64,000 nucleotides of DNA from Shigella phage ChubbyThor. Positions 45,792 to 56,155 of the stretch are shown piece after piece. How positions within the stretch are numbered: the first letter of the stretch is position 1; each line of letters starts with the position of its first letter. The notes beneath the pieces are model-generated. The model was not told the origin of the DNA. It worked only from the letters and a program-made list of their open reading frames with translations, and did not search any database. Location: the sequence record OL615013, one strand, 5' to 3'. Made by a program: the position numbers and the translations under genes.

Positions 45792-46298
45792 TTATAGGGT
45801 AACAAGTGATACGGTAAAAACCATCGTCCCGTCTGTTGCCATTTTTCTTGAAACTGGTATGACGCGAGGCTGGCAGAATATCCATTCTTTCTCCATGGAC
45901 GCCAAGTCCAGCATATCCATTTCTGATTCATCGCCTTTGTTCACAAATTTTTCTAGAGAACCATAGACATTAAGCCCCTCCGGGAGTCCGTTTCGATGTT
46001 TGTAACAAATGCGGGCAACAGCTTTGGTTCCGTACGATTTAGAAAATTGTTTGGCCACATGCTTCAGTTCACTGAAGCTAAGACAAGAATCCCATGTCTG
46101 GAACATGTCGCCTCGTTCAAACAACATCTCTAAACGCGCAACGTCCTCCTTAGGCAGCCCGCGATAAAGTGTGGTCGTCTGTGGCTCGCGTAATTCTTGC
46201 ACCAGATCACGGACGGCAGGGGAAACAGTACCGGGGCGCATGATGTGGGACTTATCATGGGCGAGGTAAAATAAATCTTGAATTTGTTGATCGGTCAT
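45792..46298 (-). CDS. candidate mono-ADP-ribosyltransferase (R-S-E type), low confidence
   Basis: 169 aa (start MTDQQIQ); ordered motifs TTLYRG (aromatic-Arg), WDSCLSFS (STS-like), GDESEMD/MEKEWIF (ExE candidates). Confidence 0.3.
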   Translation of the reverse strand: MTDQQIQDLFYLAHDKSHIMRPGTVSPAVRDLVQELREPQTTTLYRGLPKEDVARLEMLFERGDMFQTWDSCLSFSELKHVAKQFSKSYGTKAVARICYKHRNGLPEGLNVYGSLEKFVNKGDESEMDMLDLASMEKEWIFCQPRVIPVSRKMATDGTMVFTVSLVTL

Positions 46299-46720: not shown

Positions 46721-47047
46721 TTATTTGCGCAGGGCAACCACGAGTTCAGCGAGTTCGCCCATGGTAGGGTCATCGCCTTTACTACCCAGCCAGCCGTCGT
46801 CGATTTCGACCTGAAACTCTTCTTCGAGGTCCATTACAATTTCGATAGCGTCCAGTTCGTCGCCGCCGAGATCCTTCTTGGTGCGGAGACCAGCCAGCTT
46901 GTCCAGGGCATCGTTGATTACCACTTCGGCATCGACGATCCCTTTGATGCTACTCTTGTCCTCATCACTGACTTCCAGATTCAGATTGTCAGTGGCGTAC
47001 TGAGCCAGATGACGCATGACTTCAACATATGTTGGTTTACTGCTCAT
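46721..47047 (-). CDS. acyl-carrier-protein homolog lacking the phosphopantetheine-attachment Ser (GGDELD instead of GADSLD)
   Basis: 108 aa; ACP helix II signature KDLGGDELDAIEIVMDLEEEFQVEI; acidic. Confidence 0.6.
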   Translation of the reverse strand: MSSKPTYVEVMRHLAQYATDNLNLEVSDEDKSSIKGIVDAEVVINDALDKLAGLRTKKDLGGDELDAIEIVMDLEEEFQVEIDDGWLGSKGDDPTMGELAELVVALRK

Positions 47048-47089: not shown

Positions 47090-49294
47090 TTAGATTTTGA
47101 TCTCTTTCTCTGCCAGTTCGGCAGTGACCTTGTACTTCACGCCATCCACTTCAACTTCCATGGTTGACTCTTCCAGGTCGAGGTCGGTGAACCAGCCGTG
47201 GCCAGCAACGATACCATACACCACTTTAGACAGCGTCTTGTTCAAGGCGCGGACTTCAGTGATGGCCGCCTTGGCAGCAGCGTCGATCCAGTTTTCGATC
47301 AGCTGTTTCTGTACGGCTTCAGGCACGGCAGTGATCGCAGGAGACTTCACGAATGCTTCGTATTCCTTCAGAGCATTGGCGATGAACAAGTCACCCGCAT
47401 TGAGTTTCTTGTTCTCGGCAATCTTCTTCTGTACTGCCGCGATGCTAGGCAGAGAAGACGCTCCAGCGATCTTAACGTTCAGCTCACGGCTCATGTAGAC
47501 ATCCGTGGAGTCCTTCAGTTCGGTCTTCGGTGAGAAGCCGTAATCGCGGATGCCGTAGGAGGACAGGAACTCTGCCGCCTCAGCGCCGTACTGTACTGCC
47601 AGGCCTTTGGCGTTACCTTTGCCAACCAGTTCATCACGGAAGAACTTCAGCACCTTCTGCTTGCCTTTCAGGGCTTCCAGACGGACATTATCCGCAAAGA
47701 ACTGAGCAGCACTGATGTTCTTGACCATGGCGCGGTTGACCAGCGGTACGCTTTCCAGGTTCAGGACAAACACTTCCGGACCACCGAACACATGGACGCC
47801 CATCTGGCACAGATTGGTTACAACTTCAACATCAGCCCTGAACGGCAGAGTCTTCACGTTGATGATGCCGTCTTTGACGATGGTGTAGTTGCGCCACTGG
47901 AAAGTATCCAGTTCTTCAGGCAGACCGAACTTCTTCTGCACGAACTCCGGAATCGCCACAGTGCCGTGCTGGACAGTGCGTACACTGATATTAGGGCGTT
48001 CGGAGTTATAGACCAAATCGCTGATTGGCACAACACCCAGATCGTTGTTAGGTTCGAACGTCGGGTTCCACTCTTCGTGCTCGGCCAGCTTGAGAGCCAG
48101 GGCTTTGCGCTCTTCTTTGGACTCGGCGTTCGCGATCTGTTCTGCCAGCTTGTCTTCGGTATCGTCCAGTTTCTGAGCCGTACCGCGACCGATGCTCTTG
48201 TAGGAGAACATAGGATGTTTGGTAGCAACACACACGCCAGCTTCAGCCAGATACGTCAGCACGTCAACGACGGTCGTCGCATCTTCAGCTGGAACCAGGT
48301 CATAATCAATACCGTCAACGCCGCGCAGCTGGTCATCAACGATGGCCTGGGTCAGATCAACTTTGATGTTGGAGTAGTCCTGCTTGGTGAAGCAGTTGCT
48401 GTACTGTTTGATGAAGCGAACGTCACCCGTTTTCTTCAGGGCAGCCCACACCAGGTCTGCGTCCATGATGTGTACGCCGTAGAACGCCAGCACGTATGCC
48501 GCCTGGATGTCCGCCAGCGCATCAAGCTGGTCGATCATGTTAGGATTGACGACCCACAGCTTCGTGACGCTCTCAGGGATGCTCACGTGGCCGATAGGAT
48601 GGTCTTCATCCGGCTGTACCGCCAGCACAGTTGCTACGCCGTTTTCAACGTAGATGGCATGATCATACAGCAACGGAACATCAACAACCACTTTCGGCAC
48701 CGAGGACTTCAGTACGTTTTCCAGCTCGGTCTGATATTCGGTCTGGCCTTCGGCGAACACGTGAGTCGCGCCGGAACGTTCAGACATCAGAGCCAGCAGT
48801 TCGCGGTTACAGTACCAGCCGTATTCGATGAATGTGACGTTGTCGAAAGCGGAAGGAAGTTTTTCGGCGGTCTCCAGGATCTCATTGGAGCGCCAGCAGT
48901 TGTCATAACCATCGGTCATGAACGCCAGGTTGTTGACGTAGCCGGGTTTCTTCAGGTCACGCGCAGTATCCATCGCCAGTTTCAATGGTTCAACAAAACC
49001 AGTACAGCCGGATGGTTGTAGGAAGCGGTCGATCAGTTTGTTCAGCTCGCTCAGGTCAGATGCTGCACTAACCTGACGGCCAGCGAACACAGTACCAAAG
49101 TCGCCACGGGATGAGAAATACAGAACACTCACAGTATCTTCCGGTTTCACCAGAGAAGGCAGGTTCTCCTTCAGATGCTTACGGACTTCAGGGAGCGCAC
49201 GGTACATCGAATAAGAGATGTCCACAACGATTACATGGTTGGACGGGGCAGCAGTCGCAACCGCATTCTTAAATTCTAATGATTCAATCATCGT
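47090..49294 (-). CDS. von Willebrand factor A (vWA) domain protein, large
   Basis: ORF track 47090..49375; start MIESLEF; MIDAS motif VVDISYSM (DxSxS) near N-terminus; rest unassigned. Confidence 0.55.
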   Translation of the reverse strand, partial: TMIESLEFKNAVATAAPSNHVIVVDISYSMYRALPEVRKHLKENLPSLVKPEDTVSVLYFSSRGDFGTVFAGRQVSAASDLSELNKLIDRFLQPSGCTGFVEPLKLAMDTARDLKKPGYVNNLAFMTDGYDNCWRSNEILETAEKLPSAFDNVTFIEYGWYCNRELLALMSERSGATHVFAEGQTEYQTELENVLKSSVPKVVVDVPLLYDHAIYVENGVATVLAVQPDEDHPIGHVSIPESVTKLWVVNPNMIDQLDALADIQAAYVLAFYGVHIMDADLVWAALKKTGDVRFIKQYSNCFTKQDYSNIKVDLTQAIVDDQLRGVDGIDYDLVPAEDATTVVDVLTYLAEAGVCVATKHPMFSYKSIGRGTAQKLDDTEDKLAEQIANAESKEERKALALKLAEHEEWNPTFEPNNDLGVVPISDLVYNSERPNISVRTVQHGTVAIPEFVQKKFGLPEELDTFQWRNYTIVKDGIINVKTLPFRADVEVVTNLCQMGVHVFGGPEVFVLNLESVPLVNRAMVKNISAAQFFADNVRLEALKGKQKVLKFFRDELVGKGNAKGLAVQYGAEAAEFLSSYGIRDYGFSPKTELKDSTDVYMSRELNVKIAGASSLPSIAAVQKKIAENKKLNAGDLFIANALKEYEAFVKSPAITAVPEAVQKQLIENWIDAAAKAAITEVRALNKTLSKVVYGIVAGHGWFTDLDLEESTMEVEVDGVKYKVTAELAEKEIKI

Positions 49295-49511
49295 TATTGC
49301 CTTCTTCAGGGTTGTCTTCGGCCTCACCTTCCGGCTTGACCAGCATATGTTCAAGGAAATCGCGATTGAGTTCAATCTGACTCATCAGCGTTTCCGATGG
49401 GCTAAAGCGGCGGTCGAGGTTGTCGACGCCCGCACGTTCAAATGGTTTGGCCATATCAGCCGCCCTTGACTTCAGTAACGCCAGGGATCGACCGCAGGGC
49501 TTGGCGAACAT
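49284..49511 (-). CDS. small acidic protein (start uncertain)
   Basis: ORF track 75 aa; overlaps vWA gene start. Confidence 0.3.
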   Translation of the reverse strand: MFAKPCGRSLALLKSRAADMAKPFERAGVDNLDRRFSPSETLMSQIELNRDFLEHMLVKPEGEAEDNPEEGNNDD

Positions 49512-49815: not shown

Positions 49816-49832
49816 CAGGATTCCCTCGAAAC

Positions 49833-49850
49833 AGGGGAGTTGCCTCCCCT
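49833..49850 (-). repeat. stem-loop element family B copy (AGGGGAG-GCAA-CUCCCCU)
   Basis: Identical 18-mer to ~23923. Confidence 0.6.
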
Positions 49851-49857
49851 TCGGTTA

Positions 49858-51522
49858 TCAGATTTGTGATGCCAGTTCTACTACGAGAGGAGCGGCACGG
49901 ACACGCGCATCTTCCAGAGTTTGAGTGTTGAAGAACTTGCCGTCACGATACACCAGCTGGTGCTGGTTGTCGGCGTCTTGCACCTGATCAAAGGTGATAC
50001 CGTCAACCAACACTAGTTTACCCTGAGAGTCTTTAATGACTTTAAGGAAACCACGCGCAGACTTTTTAGTCCCGCCTTTGTCGGTCTTCGGCTCTTTGAA
50101 GATCTCACGGAATTCGCCGTTCACCTTACCAGCCGTTGCTTTCACCGCCGTGCCAGTACTGTCACGGGTGTTCATCTGGTAGGTGTAGGAACCGATACCG
50201 AACACCACGTTGATGGAAGCGAAGTTCCGGCCAGCCAGACGACTAAAGATCTGGTCTTCACGTGCCAGGGTGATGGAGTCACCGTAGATCAGACCGATGT
50301 GTTCGTCCAACAGGAAGTGGCCAGTTTCAGTTTGAGTACCGCCAAAGATCTCCCACAGGCGCTGGATAGAGCCGACTGCTTCAGAACGGCTGATGATATT
50401 ACGGTCGTCTGCCATCAGAGAGTTGATCGTGCCTTCGCCTGTGATCAGGTGATAGGTGTTCGTCTCTTCGATGTGAATGACTTCAGTGCTGCTAGACACG
50501 CCGCTGATGTTCAGCGTGGCGCGGTCTTTGAACCCCTCAATGCGGTAGCCGCCGACGATATGAACTGGGTCGCCCGAGTCAGGGCGGATCACGACTTTAC
50601 CGTTACGCGCCATGATAATGTCTTTCAGGCGAGGGAGATAGTCGTCGATGACCTGCCAGTAATCCCACGCATCAGACACGATGCTGACGATGCCATCAGG
50701 ATACACGTCCTGCACCAGGCGGCGGAAGGTTTCGAATTCGCCATCCTTCGTACCCATACACATCACGGCGTGTTCGGTAGCCGCAACAGAACCAGCAACG
50801 ACATAGTCTTCGTCGATGTCTGCGCCATAATACTCTTCTACGAAGTCCAGGGCAGGGTTGGTATCGGTGCCTTTGAAGAACACCAGATGACCGGAACCGG
50901 AAGACGCCGCGTCATGCCATCCACTCATGCCACGGAAGGAGAAGTCGTGGCCTTGGTAGTCGATGAACCAATGGTCCGGCGACACGCCTGTAGCGAGGGC
51001 AGCTTTCACCATCAGTGCCTTGTAATGCAGGGCGATGGTGGCGTTCGTCATCGGCTTCCAGATCTCAGAGCTGAACACAGTCTCCAGATAGTTGGTCAGC
51101 CAGTAGAACTCCGGCAGGGTGTTGAACATCACATACACCGGAACGCCATATGGGCACATGGTGCCTTCAGGCAGAGCACGGACTTCGATAGGCAGGTAGC
51201 CGAGGTCATGCAGGGCTTCAATATGCTCTGTGCCGACGCGGCCTGGACCCAGGACTTTGTTCATGCGACGGGCATACTTCTTCAACACCTTGGCCTTTGG
51301 GCGCTGGAAGAATGCTTCGTCAAACAGTTCGTGGAACCAGGTCATGAAGCCCTGGATGCCCCAGACCACCACGCCGTTCTTCGGCAGGTGAGAGTTGAAC
51401 AGTTTGTTGGAGCGCGGAGTTCCGTTGGAGAACACCAGCTCGCTGCCTTCAGGGAACTGATAGATGTGCCCTGATTTGTAGAAGTCGATTGCATGGATTG
51501 GGTCTAAGTGGCGCATGCTCAT
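49858..51522 (-). CDS. nicotinamide phosphoribosyltransferase-family enzyme (NadV/Nampt-like; candidate nicotinamide ADP-ribose transferase of an NAD+ reconstitution pathway)
   Basis: 554 aa; Nampt blocks HDFSFRGMSG, GTDTNPALD, VVIRPDSGDP; 4-nt overlap with upstream Prs-like gene. Confidence 0.8.
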   Translation of the reverse strand: MSMRHLDPIHAIDFYKSGHIYQFPEGSELVFSNGTPRSNKLFNSHLPKNGVVVWGIQGFMTWFHELFDEAFFQRPKAKVLKKYARRMNKVLGPGRVGTEHIEALHDLGYLPIEVRALPEGTMCPYGVPVYVMFNTLPEFYWLTNYLETVFSSEIWKPMTNATIALHYKALMVKAALATGVSPDHWFIDYQGHDFSFRGMSGWHDAASSGSGHLVFFKGTDTNPALDFVEEYYGADIDEDYVVAGSVAATEHAVMCMGTKDGEFETFRRLVQDVYPDGIVSIVSDAWDYWQVIDDYLPRLKDIIMARNGKVVIRPDSGDPVHIVGGYRIEGFKDRATLNISGVSSSTEVIHIEETNTYHLITGEGTINSLMADDRNIISRSEAVGSIQRLWEIFGGTQTETGHFLLDEHIGLIYGDSITLAREDQIFSRLAGRNFASINVVFGIGSYTYQMNTRDSTGTAVKATAGKVNGEFREIFKEPKTDKGGTKKSARGFLKVIKDSQGKLVLVDGITFDQVQDADNQHQLVYRDGKFFNTQTLEDARVRAAPLVVELASQI

Positions 51523-52373
51523 TTTACACGTCCTGTATTTTCAGTTTTGAAAGGAAGACCGTCGGCGGTGATATTCTCCCACCAGACAGTGTCGGCATAC
51601 ACAGCATCGTAAATCCCGTCGAAAACAGAGAGACCTTTGCTGAAGATGCCATGGGTAACGAAGAGCGTCATGTGTTTGGGCTTGTGCTTCTGAAGCTCTT
51701 TGCCTAACTCAACGAACGTGCGCCCACCGTCGCAGATATCATCAACCACAACCAGATAGCGGTCTTTGATCAGTTCAGGGTTTGTAATGCTCACCCCAAT
51801 GATCTCACCAGTCTTGGTGTCACGGTTCTTGTGTCCGTAGACAACAGGAACACCATCCAGAGACAGGCTGAGGGCTTCGGTCTTCTTCGCCGCGCCACCG
51901 TCAGGGGCTACCAACACAGCATTGTTCCCACGGATGAACCAGCCCAGATACTGACGCACGATGTAATCTTGCGGGACAACATGGACGTTGTTGATCAGAG
52001 AAGTCACAACATGGCTGTGAGGGTCTTTGATCGCCACGCGGTCAAAGTTCATGCTATTGATGAACTCAGCCGCCCACTTCACAGACAGAGGCTCGCCGAA
52101 GTCGCAATGGCGGTCCTGGCGAGCATACGGGAAGTAAGGGATATACGCATGGAATGTCGTCAGACGATCCACGTTGCCCAGGCCACGCACGGCGTTTACC
52201 AGAAGCGCCAGCTCAATGAAGTCGGCTGATGATTTGATGTGAGCATCAATCACCACGTTCTGGACGTGACCGACAGGGATGCCAGCCTTTTGGATCTTGA
52301 TATGTTCCTCACCACCTGGGAAGGTGAAGTGCTTGTAGAACACATCTTGGTCGTTCAATTTCAAACGAAACAT
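51519..52373 (-). CDS. ribose-phosphate pyrophosphokinase-family enzyme (Prs-like; candidate ADP-ribose pyrophosphokinase)
   Basis: 284 aa; IPYFPYARQDRH (cf. IPYFGYARQDRR) and PRPP-binding loop VVVDDICDGGRT. Confidence 0.8.
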   Translation of the reverse strand: MFRLKLNDQDVFYKHFTFPGGEEHIKIQKAGIPVGHVQNVVIDAHIKSSADFIELALLVNAVRGLGNVDRLTTFHAYIPYFPYARQDRHCDFGEPLSVKWAAEFINSMNFDRVAIKDPHSHVVTSLINNVHVVPQDYIVRQYLGWFIRGNNAVLVAPDGGAAKKTEALSLSLDGVPVVYGHKNRDTKTGEIIGVSITNPELIKDRYLVVVDDICDGGRTFVELGKELQKHKPKHMTLFVTHGIFSKGLSVFDGIYDAVYADTVWWENITADGLPFKTENTGRVK

Positions 52374-52483
52374 AATGTAGCCTCATGGTGTATTGTACAG
52401 CCGTATTATACTGTGATGCACAAATTGAAACACCCAGCAAATATACTGGGCGTCATTGATATTGAAGGAGTTTGATAATTCAG

Positions 52484-53278
52484 TTATTTGTAGGAATCGA
52501 CGATGGCCTTGAACAGCGCGTCCTTCTGGTCGGTTGGGATATAATCCGCCGGAGCCAGCAAGAGCCGCCTGATGTCTTCACAGCAGCCTTTCTGCTCTTC
52601 GGCGCTCATCTTATCCCAAGTGGTGGCATTAAAGTAGATCCCACCCTTGTAAGCCGCCGTGCAAGTCTTGGCCAGGCGAACAACGAGTTCTGAATACAGT
52701 TCATCAGGCCGCATGTGTGAACGCAAATATGTTTCCACTCTGGCCTGGACTTTGCTGTTGTGTTGGTCATTGTGAAGTTCGTTGTCGGTATGAATAAATT
52801 CAGCACCGAATCCGCGACTTGGGTCTCGTGGATGATGGAACACGAAAGACTGGCTATGACCTTTCAAGAATTCCATCCCAGCCATATGATTTATCTTCCC
52901 CCTTTCGGAGATGTACTGCAAGATATCTATCTTCGCATCGGCGGTGGCCGCCTCCAACATCTGCTTCTCCACGACGGCGCGGTAGGCTTCCAGTTCCCAC
53001 AACTGGGAGAAAGTCTTGTCATAGGCCAGCTTCTTACCCAACTCTTCATCAAAGTTGGCAGGGTCGATGGAAGTAGAGCTATTCTTGCCCCAGACGACAA
53101 AGCCGTTGTCCATCTTGAAATGGCAGGTGATGACACGATGACCGCCGACTTCACGGTCTTCATAGATGACTTCAGCAATGTGGGACTTCAGGAGGTCTGG
53201 AGACAGCTTCAGACCTTCGCGAACAGATTTACCCTTCAGCTCAACACCTTTGGGTTCATTACGATTGATGGTTGCCAT
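52484..53278 (-). CDS. hypothetical protein
   Basis: ORF track 52484..53311; start MATINRNEPK. Confidence 0.45.
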   Translation of the reverse strand: MATINRNEPKGVELKGKSVREGLKLSPDLLKSHIAEVIYEDREVGGHRVITCHFKMDNGFVVWGKNSSTSIDPANFDEELGKKLAYDKTFSQLWELEAYRAVVEKQMLEAATADAKIDILQYISERGKINHMAGMEFLKGHSQSFVFHHPRDPSRGFGAEFIHTDNELHNDQHNSKVQARVETYLRSHMRPDELYSELVVRLAKTCTAAYKGGIYFNATTWDKMSAEEQKGCCEDIRRLLLAPADYIPTDQKDALFKAIVDSYK

Positions 53279-53660
53279 TCTGTGTTTCCCGTAATTGGTT
53301 GCATACAACAACTACTTTACGGCACATGTCGATATCGAACAAGCCGATATGGCAATCACGCTTCTTGATCCCCAGCTTATGCGCCAGCCAACTGTAAGCG
53401 TCGCTCCTGCTCCTCTCTCCGCTTTTCCACAATGGGTCAAACGATCTATGGGCTTTTCGCTTCTCGGCACGGAGAGCGGCATTCGCCATCCTTCCCAGAG
53501 GTTGTCTGCCGTCGCCATGGGCATGGCAACCGACACGAGCGTCACATGGAGTGCATACCCAGAACTTCAGATTGCGGAGGTCAGGGCGATGAGGGTGGAG
53601 GACGTCACCACCGACGAATTCGGCTGGGTGGCCGCAGTAATCACAGATGACAGGTTTCAT
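53259..53660 (-). CDS. zinc-ribbon protein
   Basis: ORF track 53259..53687; MKPVICDYCGHP ... WVCTPCDARVGCHAH Cys/His cluster. Confidence 0.4.
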   Translation of the reverse strand: MKPVICDYCGHPAEFVGGDVLHPHRPDLRNLKFWVCTPCDARVGCHAHGDGRQPLGRMANAALRAEKRKAHRSFDPLWKSGERSRSDAYSWLAHKLGIKKRDCHIGLFDIDMCRKVVVVCNQLRETQNGNHQS

Positions 53661-53720
53661 ATTCTTTGTCCAAAAGAAACCCCGCACATGGCGGGGTTGC
53701 TCAGGCCGAGGCCAACAGGG

Positions 53721-54092
53721 TTATTTCAGCAGCGCTTCCAGTTCTTCAACAGATTTGCCTTCCAGCTCCTGCTGTTTCTTACGCTGGATCAGCTCCAGGA
53801 TAACCTGGTTGTTCGCCTTACGCTCTGCCGCGTCTTTGCTGTCGTCACGCTCTTTCAGCTTAACGCCGATGATGTGCTTGACAACGTCGAAGCGCAGCTG
53901 CAGTTCGGAGTCAACGTTGCTTTTGGTGCCGATGAAATCTTCTTCATCGGTTTCCGCTGCCTTCACCTGACGGCTCAGACCTTTGGCCATTTCGTTCAGG
54001 GCGGTCAGGCTAAGGTCCCAGACCTGCTCAACAGACAGCAGACCTTTGTTGGATTCGAAGCGCAGTTTCAGACGGGTTGCTTTATCAAACAT
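53721..54092 (-). CDS. hypothetical coiled-coil protein
   Basis: ORF track 123 aa. Confidence 0.45.
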   Translation of the reverse strand: MFDKATRLKLRFESNKGLLSVEQVWDLSLTALNEMAKGLSRQVKAAETDEEDFIGTKSNVDSELQLRFDVVKHIIGVKLKERDDSKDAAERKANNQVILELIQRKKQQELEGKSVEELEALLK

Positions 54093-54136: not shown

Positions 54137-56155
54137 TTAGAACACAACTTTCACAGTGCGGTTGAACGAGCCGCTCACCTTCACGAACACGTGGTTGCGT
54201 TGGGTGGTAGAGAAGCCCAGACCGGACAGCTGCTCAGTGCTTGGCTGTACTTTAATCTTACCACCTAACATTTCAAAAACCTTGCGGTGTTTATCAAGTT
54301 CCGGCTTCAGATATTCGTTGTAGAAGCCACGGGTGCCGACAGGGTTAGCACAACCTTCCAGGATGAAGAACACGTGCTTGTTGCCCGTCTGCTCGCCGTC
54401 CCAATGGTTTGGTGAGTTCAGAACCAGCTGTACCTTCTGGAAGACGGAGGTCTTGATGCCCCAGATTTCCTGAGAGCGAGCGTCGTCTTTCAGGGTAGAA
54501 CTGATGTCGACCACCTGACCAGCGCGTACCTGAACCACAACAGCCAACGTGCGGTCTTTGTTTCCCAGACCAGGATGCGAGAAGCGCTTGGTCTGGCCTT
54601 TGTATTCAACTTCGATTTCGAAGCCCACATCGCAGGTTTCGCGCTTGCTGTAGTTGGTGACATAGAACTCATAGTTCCCGTCACGCAGCTTGCATTCATC
54701 GCTGAAGAAGATGTTCTCCACCGGACGGCGGTTCGGGTCAATACCGTCCATACCGTTCATGTCGATGTCCAGGGTTGCACCAGTTGCCGAACGACGGTTG
54801 TTGAAATACACGTGGTTGTGAAGAGGATCGTTCAGGCTCAGATCCAGGTCGTCGTTGTTATGCCAAGCCAGCGACACACGGAGGAAGCTGTCGACGTTGC
54901 CGCCTGCGGTCTTCACGCGCTCTTTGATGGAGTCGGCCACTTCACCGTTGTATGACCAGCTGAAGCCGTTGTTCCACTTGAACAGGTTAGGAGCACCTGC
55001 CGTAGCCGGAGCGATCAGGGACATCAGGTTGCCAGTGTGAGAGTTTTCAACCAGCACTTCCAGGGAATGCGCCTTTGGCAACACGTTGGTCAGGAAGTCG
55101 TCGATGGTGATCTCTTCAACCTTGTCCAGGGACTTGGTCGGAGTCTTCACTTCAGACGCCAGCTGAGCAAACGGGTCCATCTTCTTCTGCGCTGCCAGGT
55201 CGGCGAACAGAACGTTGTTGATGGTCAGATCGTCATACACGGCATAACGGCGACCCAGTGAATCGGTCAGACCCAGCGCTTCGACTTCTTTCTGCGCGTT
55301 TTCAATCATGGACTTCGTGACCAGCGCGGTTGGGCGCTTGTAGTTCGTCGGAGCGACTTTGGCTTCAAAGGACTTCACGGCGGTTTCCAGATCCCGACCT
55401 TCATTGAGGTCTACCAACAGAGAGCCAATCACGGTATTGCGGATGCCGTGAGGGGTGTGTCCGTTTGCACGGTAGCCAGTACGCCAAGCCCACAGAGCGC
55501 GTTTCTCTTCTGCAGTTTGTTCGTACAGGGTCTTGCTCGTCACGAACGCCTGTACTGCTGCTTTGTGCTCTTCACCACGATACAGAGAATTCTGATCAAT
55601 CAGTTCCAGAACGATTTCGGCCGATTCCAGAGACAGTTCACGCAGGCCGCGCTCAAACACTTCAATCGCCTGGCGGATTTCACCCTTCTTAGAAGCGATG
55701 ACATCAGCCCGCAGAACATAGCTGGGCAGCAGGTCGGTGTGGAAGTGGTTGTAGGTGCGGACATTACCGTCTTTCATTTCGTGATTCGACTCAACACCGA
55801 CTTTCTTGGTATCGTTGAAGTACACGTCGACGATTGCGTGTTGCTTGACATACGCAGACAGCGCCGCGGCGACAACGTCGTATTCGTTACCCAGCTGAAT
55901 GTTATCCCAGATAGAGATCACGTTCAGGTCGGCGTCGATGGTCACCACACCGCCGATGTTACGGATGAATTGTTTACAGCAGGTGCAGTCGTGCTCGGTG
56001 CGCTCACGGTAGAGCGGGTTGGTGCCAGCAGGGAAAGAAGACAGATACAGATCCCACAGAGCATCTTTATCGATGTTGGTCATGAACAGACCAGTTGCTG
56101 ACATGGCCAGCACATTATTGTTTACAGCTACTGCGAAGGGCTTAAATTCTGACAT
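54137..56155 (-). CDS. large hypothetical protein (672 aa)
   Basis: ORF track; no motif recognised by eye. Confidence 0.55.
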   Translation of the reverse strand: MSEFKPFAVAVNNNVLAMSATGLFMTNIDKDALWDLYLSSFPAGTNPLYRERTEHDCTCCKQFIRNIGGVVTIDADLNVISIWDNIQLGNEYDVVAAALSAYVKQHAIVDVYFNDTKKVGVESNHEMKDGNVRTYNHFHTDLLPSYVLRADVIASKKGEIRQAIEVFERGLRELSLESAEIVLELIDQNSLYRGEEHKAAVQAFVTSKTLYEQTAEEKRALWAWRTGYRANGHTPHGIRNTVIGSLLVDLNEGRDLETAVKSFEAKVAPTNYKRPTALVTKSMIENAQKEVEALGLTDSLGRRYAVYDDLTINNVLFADLAAQKKMDPFAQLASEVKTPTKSLDKVEEITIDDFLTNVLPKAHSLEVLVENSHTGNLMSLIAPATAGAPNLFKWNNGFSWSYNGEVADSIKERVKTAGGNVDSFLRVSLAWHNNDDLDLSLNDPLHNHVYFNNRRSATGATLDIDMNGMDGIDPNRRPVENIFFSDECKLRDGNYEFYVTNYSKRETCDVGFEIEVEYKGQTKRFSHPGLGNKDRTLAVVVQVRAGQVVDISSTLKDDARSQEIWGIKTSVFQKVQLVLNSPNHWDGEQTGNKHVFFILEGCANPVGTRGFYNEYLKPELDKHRKVFEMLGGKIKVQPSTEQLSGLGFSTTQRNHVFVKVSGSFNRTVKVVF

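Follow-up and report, generated by a model that had tools for sequence, protein, structure and literature searches.

The genome of Shigella phage ChubbyThor (sequence record OL615013) carries two overlapping genes whose products resemble a phosphoribosyl pyrophosphate (PRPP) synthetase (Prs) and a nicotinamide phosphoribosyltransferase (Nampt), and the question raised by this locus is whether the pair serves classical nicotinamide salvage or constitutes the NAD+ reconstitution pathway NARP1, in which the corresponding proteins are an ADP-ribose pyrophosphokinase (Adps) and a nicotinamide ADP-ribose transferase (Namat). The analysis was performed on a stretch of 64,000 nucleotides of this genome (hereafter, the window), and all the coordinates refer to the window. 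The gene pair is arranged as follows:

51519..52373, minus strand: adps, putative ADP-ribose pyrophosphokinase gene of the Prs family (Adps clade), 284 aa, ATG start (open reading frame list)
49858..51522, minus strand: namat, putative nicotinamide ADP-ribose transferase gene of the Nampt family (Adps-associated clade), 554 aa, ATG start (open reading frame list)
51519..51522, minus strand: ATGA start/stop overlap of 4 nt (direct sequence reading)

The pair is very probably an intact NARP1 operon (Adps plus Namat) of an Agtrevirus-type Ackermannviridae phage. This assignment is based on reciprocal profile scores, catalytic residues, a substrate-selectivity motif, structural superposition, gene adjacency and coupling, the absence of a nicotinamide mononucleotide (NMN) adenylyltransferase (Nmnat) and purifying selection. 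A NARP1-like operon had been proposed in an earlier reading made from the sequence only (the sequence-only reading), and every test that was run favoured NARP1 over salvage by Prs and Nampt or over the Nmnat-dependent pathway NARP2.

NARP1 was defined by Osterman et al. (bioRxiv 10.1101/2024.02.11.579819; Nature 2024): Adps converts ADP-ribose (ADPR) to ADP-ribose pyrophosphate (ADPR-PP), and Namat converts ADPR-PP and nicotinamide to NAD+. The pathway is present in approximately 4% of phages, according to published data. Deletion of the operon sensitises phage Bas63 to SIR2-HerA and phage FADO to DSR2, and with the SpβL1 operon phages escape several NAD+-depleting systems, type I Thoeris included; Bas63, FADO and SpβL1 are the only phages for which protection against such defences (SIR2-HerA, DSR, Thoeris I, SEFIR) has been demonstrated (Osterman et al., 2024). 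In ChubbyThor, the pathway would operate as follows: a host defence effector (SIR2, TIR, SEFIR etc.) would split NAD+ into ADP-ribose and nicotinamide, and Adps would use ATP to place a pyrophosphate onto the free ribose C1'' of ADP-ribose, yielding ADPR-PP. Nicotinamide would then replace the pyrophosphate of ADPR-PP in the reaction catalysed by Namat, giving NAD+ directly, with neither an NMN intermediate nor Nmnat, and the regenerated NAD+ would allow phage replication to go on. Both reactions and the counter-defence phenotype are attributed to the ChubbyThor pair by homology, from in vivo work on Bas63 and in vitro work on SpβL1 and DyoEdafos.

The arrangement of two minus-strand genes sharing 4 nt (51519-51522), as described in the sequence-only reading, was found both in the open reading frame list and in the sequence. 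The end of adps reads ...GTA AAA TGA; its TGA stop occupies 51521-51519, namat starts with the ATG at 51522-51520, and this ATGA overlap suggests that the translation of the two genes is coupled. The four motifs reported earlier were all located: IPYFPYARQDRH and VVVDDICDGGRT in the Prs-like protein, HDFSFRGMSG and VVIRPDSGDP in the Nampt-like protein. The assignment to the Prs and Nampt families was also borne out, far above chance, in Pfam, NCBIfam and PHROGs. The Prs-like protein matched PF00156 (Pribosyltran, 2e-9), PF13793 (Pribosyltran_N, 2e-6), TIGR01251 (2e-30) and phrog_619 (7e-91), and the Nampt-like protein matched PF04095 (NAPRTase, 7e-32), NF006629 (2e-141) and phrog_448 (2e-193). 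Shigella phage MK-13 and Salmonella phage SKML-39 (both Ackermannviridae, genus Agtrevirus) share 96.8% DNA identity with the region. The ratio of non-synonymous to synonymous substitution (dN/dS) was 0.02-0.06 for adps and namat in comparisons with four Ackermannviridae relatives, which indicates strong purifying selection on the cassette; an ungapped value for the Namat of locus L024 (0.255, nucleotide identity 0.75) was disregarded as probably distorted by an indel.

For the Prs-like protein, the distinction between Adps and cellular Prs was addressed with reciprocal profiles, a comparison that the sequence-only reading had proposed. The protein fell below both curated cutoffs for cellular Prs: it scored 105.7 bits with TIGR01251 (cutoff 113), close to the SpβL1 Adps (106.0), with the Bas63 Adps at 138.5 (both validated) and E. 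coli Prs at 422.7, and it scored 83.2 with NF002320 (cutoff 297). Conversely, a hidden Markov model (HMM) was built from 14 Adps from outside the Ackermannviridae, each of them validated or with a Namat neighbour in Table S1 of Osterman et al. (2024); this profile gave 271 bits for the window protein and 138 for E. coli Prs. The reciprocal profiles thus scored the protein as an Adps, unlike Prs. Its nearest validated relative is the Bas63 Adps (36% identity, blastp 3e-40).

The catalytic residue and other motifs agreed with the profiles. K182 aligns with the catalytic K162 of SpβL1, whose replacement (K162A) gives an inactive enzyme, and this lysine was invariant in the 18 Adps aligned (18/18). 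Its codon is located as follows:

51828-51830, minus strand: codon of the catalytic Lys182 of Adps

The Adps-type motifs DPHS, PDxGAxKK, K-x-R-D/N-x-x-TGEI and DDICDGGRT take the place of the Prs motifs DLHA, PDIGGVVR, DKRRPRANVS and DDMIDTGGT; the forms found in the window protein were DPHS, PDGGAAKK, GHKNRDTKTGEI and DDICDGGRTF. By profiles and motifs, the Prs-like protein is placed in the Adps clade, apart from cellular Prs.

For the Nampt-like protein, alignment gave 46.1% identity to the Bas63 Namat and 46.9% to the SpβL1 Namat. Identity to the NARP2-type Nampts of phages Matisse, D480 and phiAS5 was 27-30%, and these three are 47-50% identical to one another. The catalytic core is kept: F194, D220, R313, D315, the His of the ATEH motif, D13 and Y15 correspond to F189, D215, R306, D308, the catalytic His and D13'/Y15' of SpβL1. 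When the 20 residues that contact nicotinamide or NAD+ in the SpβL1 enzyme were taken from Lan et al. (2026; PMC12774641), 17 were identical in the window Namat (including R313, the equivalent of R306). The three substitutions (window/SpβL1) are K40/R40, S416/A362 and M450/Y396; Bas63 has the first two and keeps Tyr at 396.

The selectivity of Namat has been assigned to a clamp, composed of a selectivity-clamp helix (SCH) with the motif GS-X-Φ1-X-Φ2-X-Φ3-TRD, where X is mostly aromatic, and of a basic residue in a loop (SCL) (Lan et al., 2026; PMC12774641). The two regions of the window Namat that bear on this comparison and on the one with the SpβL1 structure are:

50161..50193, minus strand: selectivity-clamp helix motif GSYTYQMNTRD of Namat, residues 444-454, which fits the consensus of Lan et al. 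(2026)
50374..50547, minus strand: insertion of 58 residues in Namat (326-383) that the SpβL1 Namat lacks (alignment and AlphaFold2 model)

The anchors and the length of the clamp are correct in the window protein; Y446 occupies the position of F392 (adenine stacking), K40 takes the place of R40, like the Lys of Bas63, and the GSYTYQMNTRD motif was unchanged across all the Ackermannviridae Namats sampled. In the comparison proteins, the corresponding loop reads GGGLLQ..RD in the NARP2-type Nampts and GAQTYQRNTRD in the true bacterial Nampt HdNadV, which has Gln and Arg at the two stacking positions. The view that sequence alone cannot separate Adps and Namat from Prs and Nampt is therefore partly outdated: the Namat motif of Lan et al. 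(2026) discriminates, and the window protein has it.

Structural comparison, which had been suggested together with the profiles, pointed in the same direction. In a phmmer search of the PDB, the best scores of the window Namat were with 9W5X/9W5W (SpβL1 Namat, 456 bits), followed by HdNadV (358) and human NAMPT (174). An AlphaFold2 (AF2) model was obtained with high confidence (predicted local distance difference test score, pLDDT, 94.1; predicted template modelling score, pTM, 0.93), and it fitted the SpβL1 Namat best: superposition on 9W5X gave a template modelling (TM) score of 0.95 and a root mean square deviation of 2.0 Å, compared with TM scores of 0.91-0.92 for HdNadV and 0.88-0.90 for mammalian NAMPT. 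From the clamp motif, the 47% identity and the TM score of 0.95 to 9W5W, we infer that the enzyme would prefer ADPR-PP over PRPP, with NAD+ as the product.

For the 58-residue insertion, a small β-rich subdomain is predicted, with a pLDDT of ~89-97 and strands at 328-331, 348-351 and 356-359. This site is occupied by insertions of 25 aa or more (range 25-80 aa) in 51 of the 120 top homologs, Bas63 included.

Three other measures were tried as discriminators of Namat and Nampt and were set aside. Fold comparison ranked the structures in the right order (Namat 0.95 > HdNadV 0.92 > NAMPT 0.89) but with small gaps; NF006629 scored Namats and Nampts alike, at 464-594 bits; and overall identity failed because bacterial chromosomal homologs, at ~50%, stand above the validated phage Namats. 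As these bacterial homologs adjoin Prs-like genes, they are probably bacterial NARP1 proteins and not counter-examples.

A two-step salvage route ending in NAD+ would also involve Nmnat, and the sequence-only reading had noted that none was evident in the window. This statement held at the homology level: with three queries (NadR of E. coli, the Nmnat of a T5-like phage and a NadR-like protein from a Schizotequatrovirus), tblastn and phmmer --max searches of the 64-kb window and of the whole genome of SKML-39 gave no match better than E ~1, while the queries matched one another at 1e-11 to 1e-56 (positive control). No motif of the GxFxPxHxGH type was present in the window, and no Nmnat or Nudix product was annotated in SKML-39. 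The search beyond the window that had been proposed earlier was thus negative for the complete genome of a close relative. Membership in NARP2 was not supported by either component, as neither an Nmnat gene (window and SKML-39) nor a Nampt of the Nmnat-associated clade (27-30% identity) was found. NARP1-AP, which is NARP1 accompanied by the Macro-domain ADPR-1P phosphatase Adpp, was considered as well: Pfam hmmscan of the flanking genes, at the Pfam level and not by HHpred, found no Macro domain (PF01661, PF14519, PF20016) at E <= 5 for the first upstream and the two downstream genes and at E <= 0.01 for the second upstream gene (DUF3268).

NadR-like genes for Nmnat and ribosylnicotinamide kinase (Nmnat/RNK) were seen in 773 phage records, including T5-like phages with an adjacent nicotinamide mononucleotide transporter gene. 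Vibrio phage ICP1 has both a NadR-like Nmnat/RNK gene and an Adps-associated Namat, so NARP1 is combined with a further NAD+ route in some phages.

Several observations weigh against the assignment to NARP1. The window Adps is only ~29-33% identical to the biochemically characterised SpβL1 Adps; its blastp match to that protein (1e-26) is not dramatically ahead of its match to E. coli Prs (1.5e-18), and the FADO Adps scores below E. coli Prs in the same comparison. Because pairwise identity is this low, membership in the Adps clade rests on the profiles and on the published tree. The PDB contains no solved Adps structure with which the ADPR pocket could be compared, and the best PDB matches of the protein are Prs (1e-17). 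In Namat, one of the two adenine-stacking positions of the clamp is Met450, where SpβL1 and Bas63 carry Tyr. Met at this position (clamp position 7) was found in 13 of the 120 best homologs and was invariant among the Ackermannviridae Namats sampled, and His stands there in the DyoEdafos Namat, an enzyme with activity in vitro. Namat enzymes also keep PRPP-to-NMN activity in vitro (Osterman et al., 2024; Lan et al., 2026, PMC12774641). For ChubbyThor itself, the Nmnat search was confined to the 64-kb window. In the literature retrieved with NARP1 and Ackermannviridae names, there was no experimental study in this family, only a remark in a review.

An alternative is that a true PRPP synthetase and a true Nampt make NMN from ribose-5-phosphate, ATP and nicotinamide, with conversion to NAD+ by host NadR/NadD/PncC. 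Such a function is what Pfam, NCBIfam and all the public annotations name, and it is compatible with the common NF006629 score range, with the PRPP-to-NMN reaction of Namat in vitro and with the non-aromatic residue at clamp position 7. It is nonetheless improbable, given that the Prs-like protein failed the Prs cutoffs (105.7 against 113 for TIGR01251, 83 against 297 for NF002320) and had twice the score of E. coli Prs on the Adps profile, and that stacking position 3 of the clamp is Tyr in the window protein and Gln in the true Nampt HdNadV. The experimental data on relatives also argue against it: the anti-defence activity of Bas63 is independent of host pncC and nadR, with ADPR-PP found in vivo, and the SpβL1 Adps turns ADPR and ATP into ADPR-PP, while no product was obtained in the control incubation with ribose-5-phosphate/PRPP. 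Less probable still is the proposal that the pair supplies PRPP for the heavy nucleotide demand of the phage, as an auxiliary metabolic module of a thymidine-modifying phage family with no role in counter-defence. The surroundings lend it some colour: the SKML-39 neighbourhood includes a clamp loader, helicases and a MazG-like pyrophosphatase, with ribonucleotide reductase and thymidylate synthase encoded elsewhere, and in SeF6a a gene with an HMUDK_hel domain lies a few kb away. However, PRPP supply leaves the obligatory pairing with a Nampt-family gene unexplained (97% of the Adps-clade genes have a Namat neighbour; Osterman et al., 2024), and the cassette is dispensable and patchy among otherwise collinear relatives, a distribution that fits an accessory counter-defence function better than core metabolism.

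We also see very little likelihood that the cassette is a decaying or non-functional relic, heading for loss as in some relatives. Degraded or missing copies do exist, namely the in-frame fusion of Shigella phage Ag3, the gene fragments of locus L018 and the many Ackermannviridae with no cassette. In the window, by contrast, both open reading frames are full-length with all the catalytic residues, dN/dS is 0.02-0.06 in the comparisons with the four relatives and the AF2 model is highly confident. An intact NARP1 operon therefore remained the preferred reading.

The identification of NARP1 in this phage is correct but already known, as the ChubbyThor genes are listed in the tables of the discovery paper. 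The products are identical in sequence to UGO47100.1 / OL615013_00159 (Adps) and UGO47099.1 / OL615013_00158 (Namat). In Table S1 of Osterman et al. (2024), OL615013_00159 is entered as a homolog of Prs/Adps that has a Namat gene no more than ten genes away, and serves as a cluster representative in the tree; in Table S2, OL615013_00158 is an 'Adps-associated' Namat. The same tables hold SKML-39, MK-13, Ag3, P46FS4 and 0507-KN2-1. All the phage genomes were screened with the KVP40 Nmnat in that study, and the Namats in question received the label 'Adps-associated' (Osterman et al., 2024). A 2024 review of the Ackermannviridae (PMC11721090, citing Osterman) remarks that NAMPT and RPPK genes, which are variable among Agtrevirus, could evade NAD+-depleting defence. 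The 'candidate' NARP1 module of the sequence-only reading was thus rightly identified and was not a new candidate. Database names have not followed: the named entries of the corresponding clusters (114 and 116 members) are still 'ribose-phosphate pyrophosphokinase' and 'nicotinamide phosphoribosyltransferase', none of them Adps or Namat, and one entry labels Adps as Nampt.

Possible expression signals around the operon were located by reading the sequence, as follows:

52374..52483, minus strand: upstream intergenic region, 110 nt (direct sequence reading)
52433-52450: hairpin CCCAG-N8-CTGGG in the intergenic region upstream of adps
52405-52410: TATAAT hexamer upstream of adps
52381-52384: Shine-Dalgarno-like GAGG, 7 nt ahead of the adps ATG
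51531..51534, minus strand: Shine-Dalgarno-like AGGA, 8 nt ahead of the namat ATG, within the 3' end of adps
49834..49849, minus strand: G+C-rich hairpin GGGGAG-gcaa-CTCCCC, 8 nt past the namat stop

The region upstream of adps may serve as a promoter, and the hairpin 3' of namat may act as a weak terminator or stabilise the RNA. In a scan of the region for consensus promoters and terminators, sites were no commoner than in shuffled sequence and none was called at the operon borders; the hairpin 3' of namat was missed because its T-tail is too short.

Comparison of related genomes indicated how the operon is distributed. The gene pair lies in the following unit:

49824..52513, minus strand: apparent exchange unit, comprising both genes, the intergenic region ahead of adps and the hairpin after namat (blastn)

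In blastn with the Kuttervirus-like locus L028, positions 49824-52513 were 91.7% identical and both flanks 79-80%, which suggests exchange as a unit. Many Ackermannviridae in the locus survey had no NARP1 cassette; in three such relatives (L015, L020 and L027), blastn homology was lost between about 52650-52977 and 49379, and in the IMG/VR locus L018 only gene fragments of 93 aa and 44 aa were left. NARP1 thus appears to be a compact cassette that Ackermannviridae acquire, lose and exchange as a block.

A different rearrangement is found in Shigella phage Ag3 (FJ373894_00125), where Adps(1-222) is fused in frame to Namat(226-); this fusion is the basis of phrog_12872. Since it has neither the Adps C-terminus nor the Namat N-terminal domain, inactivation of the Ag3 operon is probable, unless the fusion reflects an assembly artefact.

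Directly upstream of adps lies a gene related to the RyR family:

52484-53278, minus strand: gene for a protein of 264 aa (counted from the conserved Met) with Phage_gp49_66 at the N-terminus and a decayed RyR-family C-terminus (Pfam and alignment)

This gene is CHUBBYTHOR_163 (UGO47101.1). Its Kuttervirus orthologs (290 aa, e.g. SeF6a_040) have a C-terminal RyR domain, detected by PF02026 at ~42 bits (cutoff 27.4), which aligns to the DyoEdafos glycosidase RyDEP (blastp 3e-14) with H75, W78, H100 and D117 in register. In the ChubbyThor protein, no PF02026 match was found by Pfam scan at E <= 5; alignment to the orthologs revealed that a block of ~40 residues bearing H75, W78 and H100 is missing, which makes it unlikely that this protein acts as a RyDEP.

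In Kuttervirus SeF6a, the VWA gene comes immediately after an intact RyR gene and NARP1 is absent; this arrangement gave rise to the idea that the RyR core and NARP1 are alternatives. Mutual exclusion was rejected after a survey of 22 loci (19 IMG/VR loci plus references): both were present in one locus (L028), RyR only in seven, NARP1 only in six and neither in eight (Fisher p = 0.19). A broader idea, which we regard as speculative and rather doubtful, is that the interval between the RyR-family and VWA genes is an anti-NAD-defence hot spot of the Ackermannviridae, where NARP1 and RyDEP-like RyR modules are shuffled independently; in ChubbyThor the RyR core would have been deleted, leaving only NARP1, and a Namat with a Met clamp and a 58-aa insertion might differ in donor specificity or regulation. 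If this were true, a RyDEP-like RyR domain would degrade or sponge the cyclic ADP-ribose (cADPR) signals of Thoeris.

The sequence-only reading had also pointed to a candidate ADP-ribosyltransferase (ART) gene downstream, in the same orientation as the pair:

45792..46298, minus strand: ART-like protein, 168 aa (phrog_832, 'RNA polymerase ADP-ribosylase', E 1.8e-15)

The gene exists, as indicated by the phrog_832 match, and its link to the pair amounts to shared orientation only. A 175-aa version of the open reading frame, with a TTG start, corresponds to CHUBBYTHOR_155 (UGO47093.1), and the 168-aa form is exactly the MK-13 protein. The match covers the C-terminal ART domain of phrog_832, with an R...S...E-like pattern (LYRG, SFS, EKEW), and the orthologs in MK-13, CBA120 and Det7 are named RNA polymerase ADP-ribosylase. 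No match was found in Pfam or among PDB sequences, so the assignment comes from PHROGs. Being ~3.5 kb and six genes away, the gene is outside the operon. As relatives keep it whether or not they have NARP1, its product is probably a host-takeover enzyme of the Alt/Mod type that does not belong to the NARP1 module.

The remaining neighbours are as follows (all on the minus strand). Downstream of the cassette, a phage acyl-carrier-protein homolog (PP-binding, phrog_4154; 46721-47047) and a VWA-domain protein of ~733-761 aa (phrog_2426; 47090-49375) are conserved across the Ackermannviridae. Upstream are a DUF3268 zinc-finger protein (53259-53687), a 123-aa protein (phrog_2018; 53721-54092) and a 672-aa protein (phrog_1735; 54137-56155), all of them conserved; the SeF6a ortholog of the last has DUF8224 in precomputed Pfam matches.

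The analysis adds little to biology at large, as the chemistry, structural basis and distribution of NARP1 are already published. Its use is more practical: annotations can be corrected in more than 100 Ackermannviridae phages, several of which are candidates for biocontrol or therapy, and whether an Ackermannviridae phage has the cassette may plausibly predict its ability to infect hosts with NAD+-depleting defences of the SIR2, TIR or SEFIR type. The variation of the locus (RyR domain intact or decayed, NARP1 present or absent) also provides a natural comparative series for combined anti-Thoeris and anti-NADase strategies.

Among known systems, no difference of substance separates the ChubbyThor operon from the catalogued NARP1 operons of Agtrevirus, Kuttervirus and Taipeivirus (SKML-39, MK-13, P46FS4, 0507-KN2-1). 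The window Adps is 99.6% identical to that of SKML-39, 97.5% to that of MK-13 and 96.8% to that of KN2-1, and SKML-39 gp048/gp049 have the same gene order and the same 4-nt overlap. Bas63 (JohannRWettstein, a Felixounavirus; genes 79-80), in which the system was validated in vivo with detection of ADPR-PP, has the same two-gene order. Its Namat (46% identity) shares the K in place of R40, the S in place of A362 and an insertion at the same site, and its Adps (33-36% identity, blastp 3e-40) has identical DPHS, DDICDGGRTF and THGIFS motifs; however, Bas63 belongs to another phage family, its genes are 45 nt apart instead of overlapping, the Namat insertion is ~30 aa longer and Tyr stands where the window protein has Met450. 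The biochemically characterised pair of the Bacillus phage SpβL1 (genes 190-191; Namat crystal structures 9W5X/9W5W) has in common with the window a 47% identical Namat (TM score 0.95), all the Namat catalytic residues, the clamp motif, the Adps catalytic Lys and abutting genes. It differs in that its Adps is ~29% identical, with DDLSSFGGT and THAENS variants, and its Namat has R40 and Y396 and no 58-aa insertion.

More distant is NARP2 (KVP40-type Nampt with Nmnat/Nudix), which likewise uses a Nampt-family enzyme to rebuild NAD+ against NAD+-depleting defences, but whose Nampts are 27-30% identical to the window Namat, carry the GGGLLQ..RD loop in place of the clamp, need Nmnat and have no Prs-like partner. 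In the mycobacteriophage DyoEdafos (gp77-gp78-gp79), NARP1 adjoins a RyR-family gene, as in the window; there, RyDEP lies between Adps and Namat, whereas the RyR-family gene of the window is upstream of both and its core (H75, W78, H100) is deleted. Finally, the bacterial chromosomal NARP1 systems (P. foliorum pfNARP1, Lan et al., 2026; NrtR-linked operons of Prs-like and NadV-like genes) have a Namat-like protein ~50% identical to the window Namat, with the same clamp motif and encoded next to a Prs-like gene. They differ in being cellular, with an adjoining gene for an NrtR-type (Nudix-related) regulator and sometimes ADP-ribosylglycohydrolase or Tpt1 genes, and presumably serve housekeeping recycling of ADPR. 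Three bacterial loci were examined (L036, Fibrella aestuarina; L037, Chitinophaga caseinilytica; L038, a metagenomic contig), and in each the operon of the homolog included genes for an NrtR-type regulator and for a Prs-like protein, sometimes with an ADP-ribosylglycohydrolase, Tpt1/KptA or DUF4291 gene nearby. These operon contexts support the link between the clamp motif and an Adps partner and agree with the published homologs (Lan et al., 2026).

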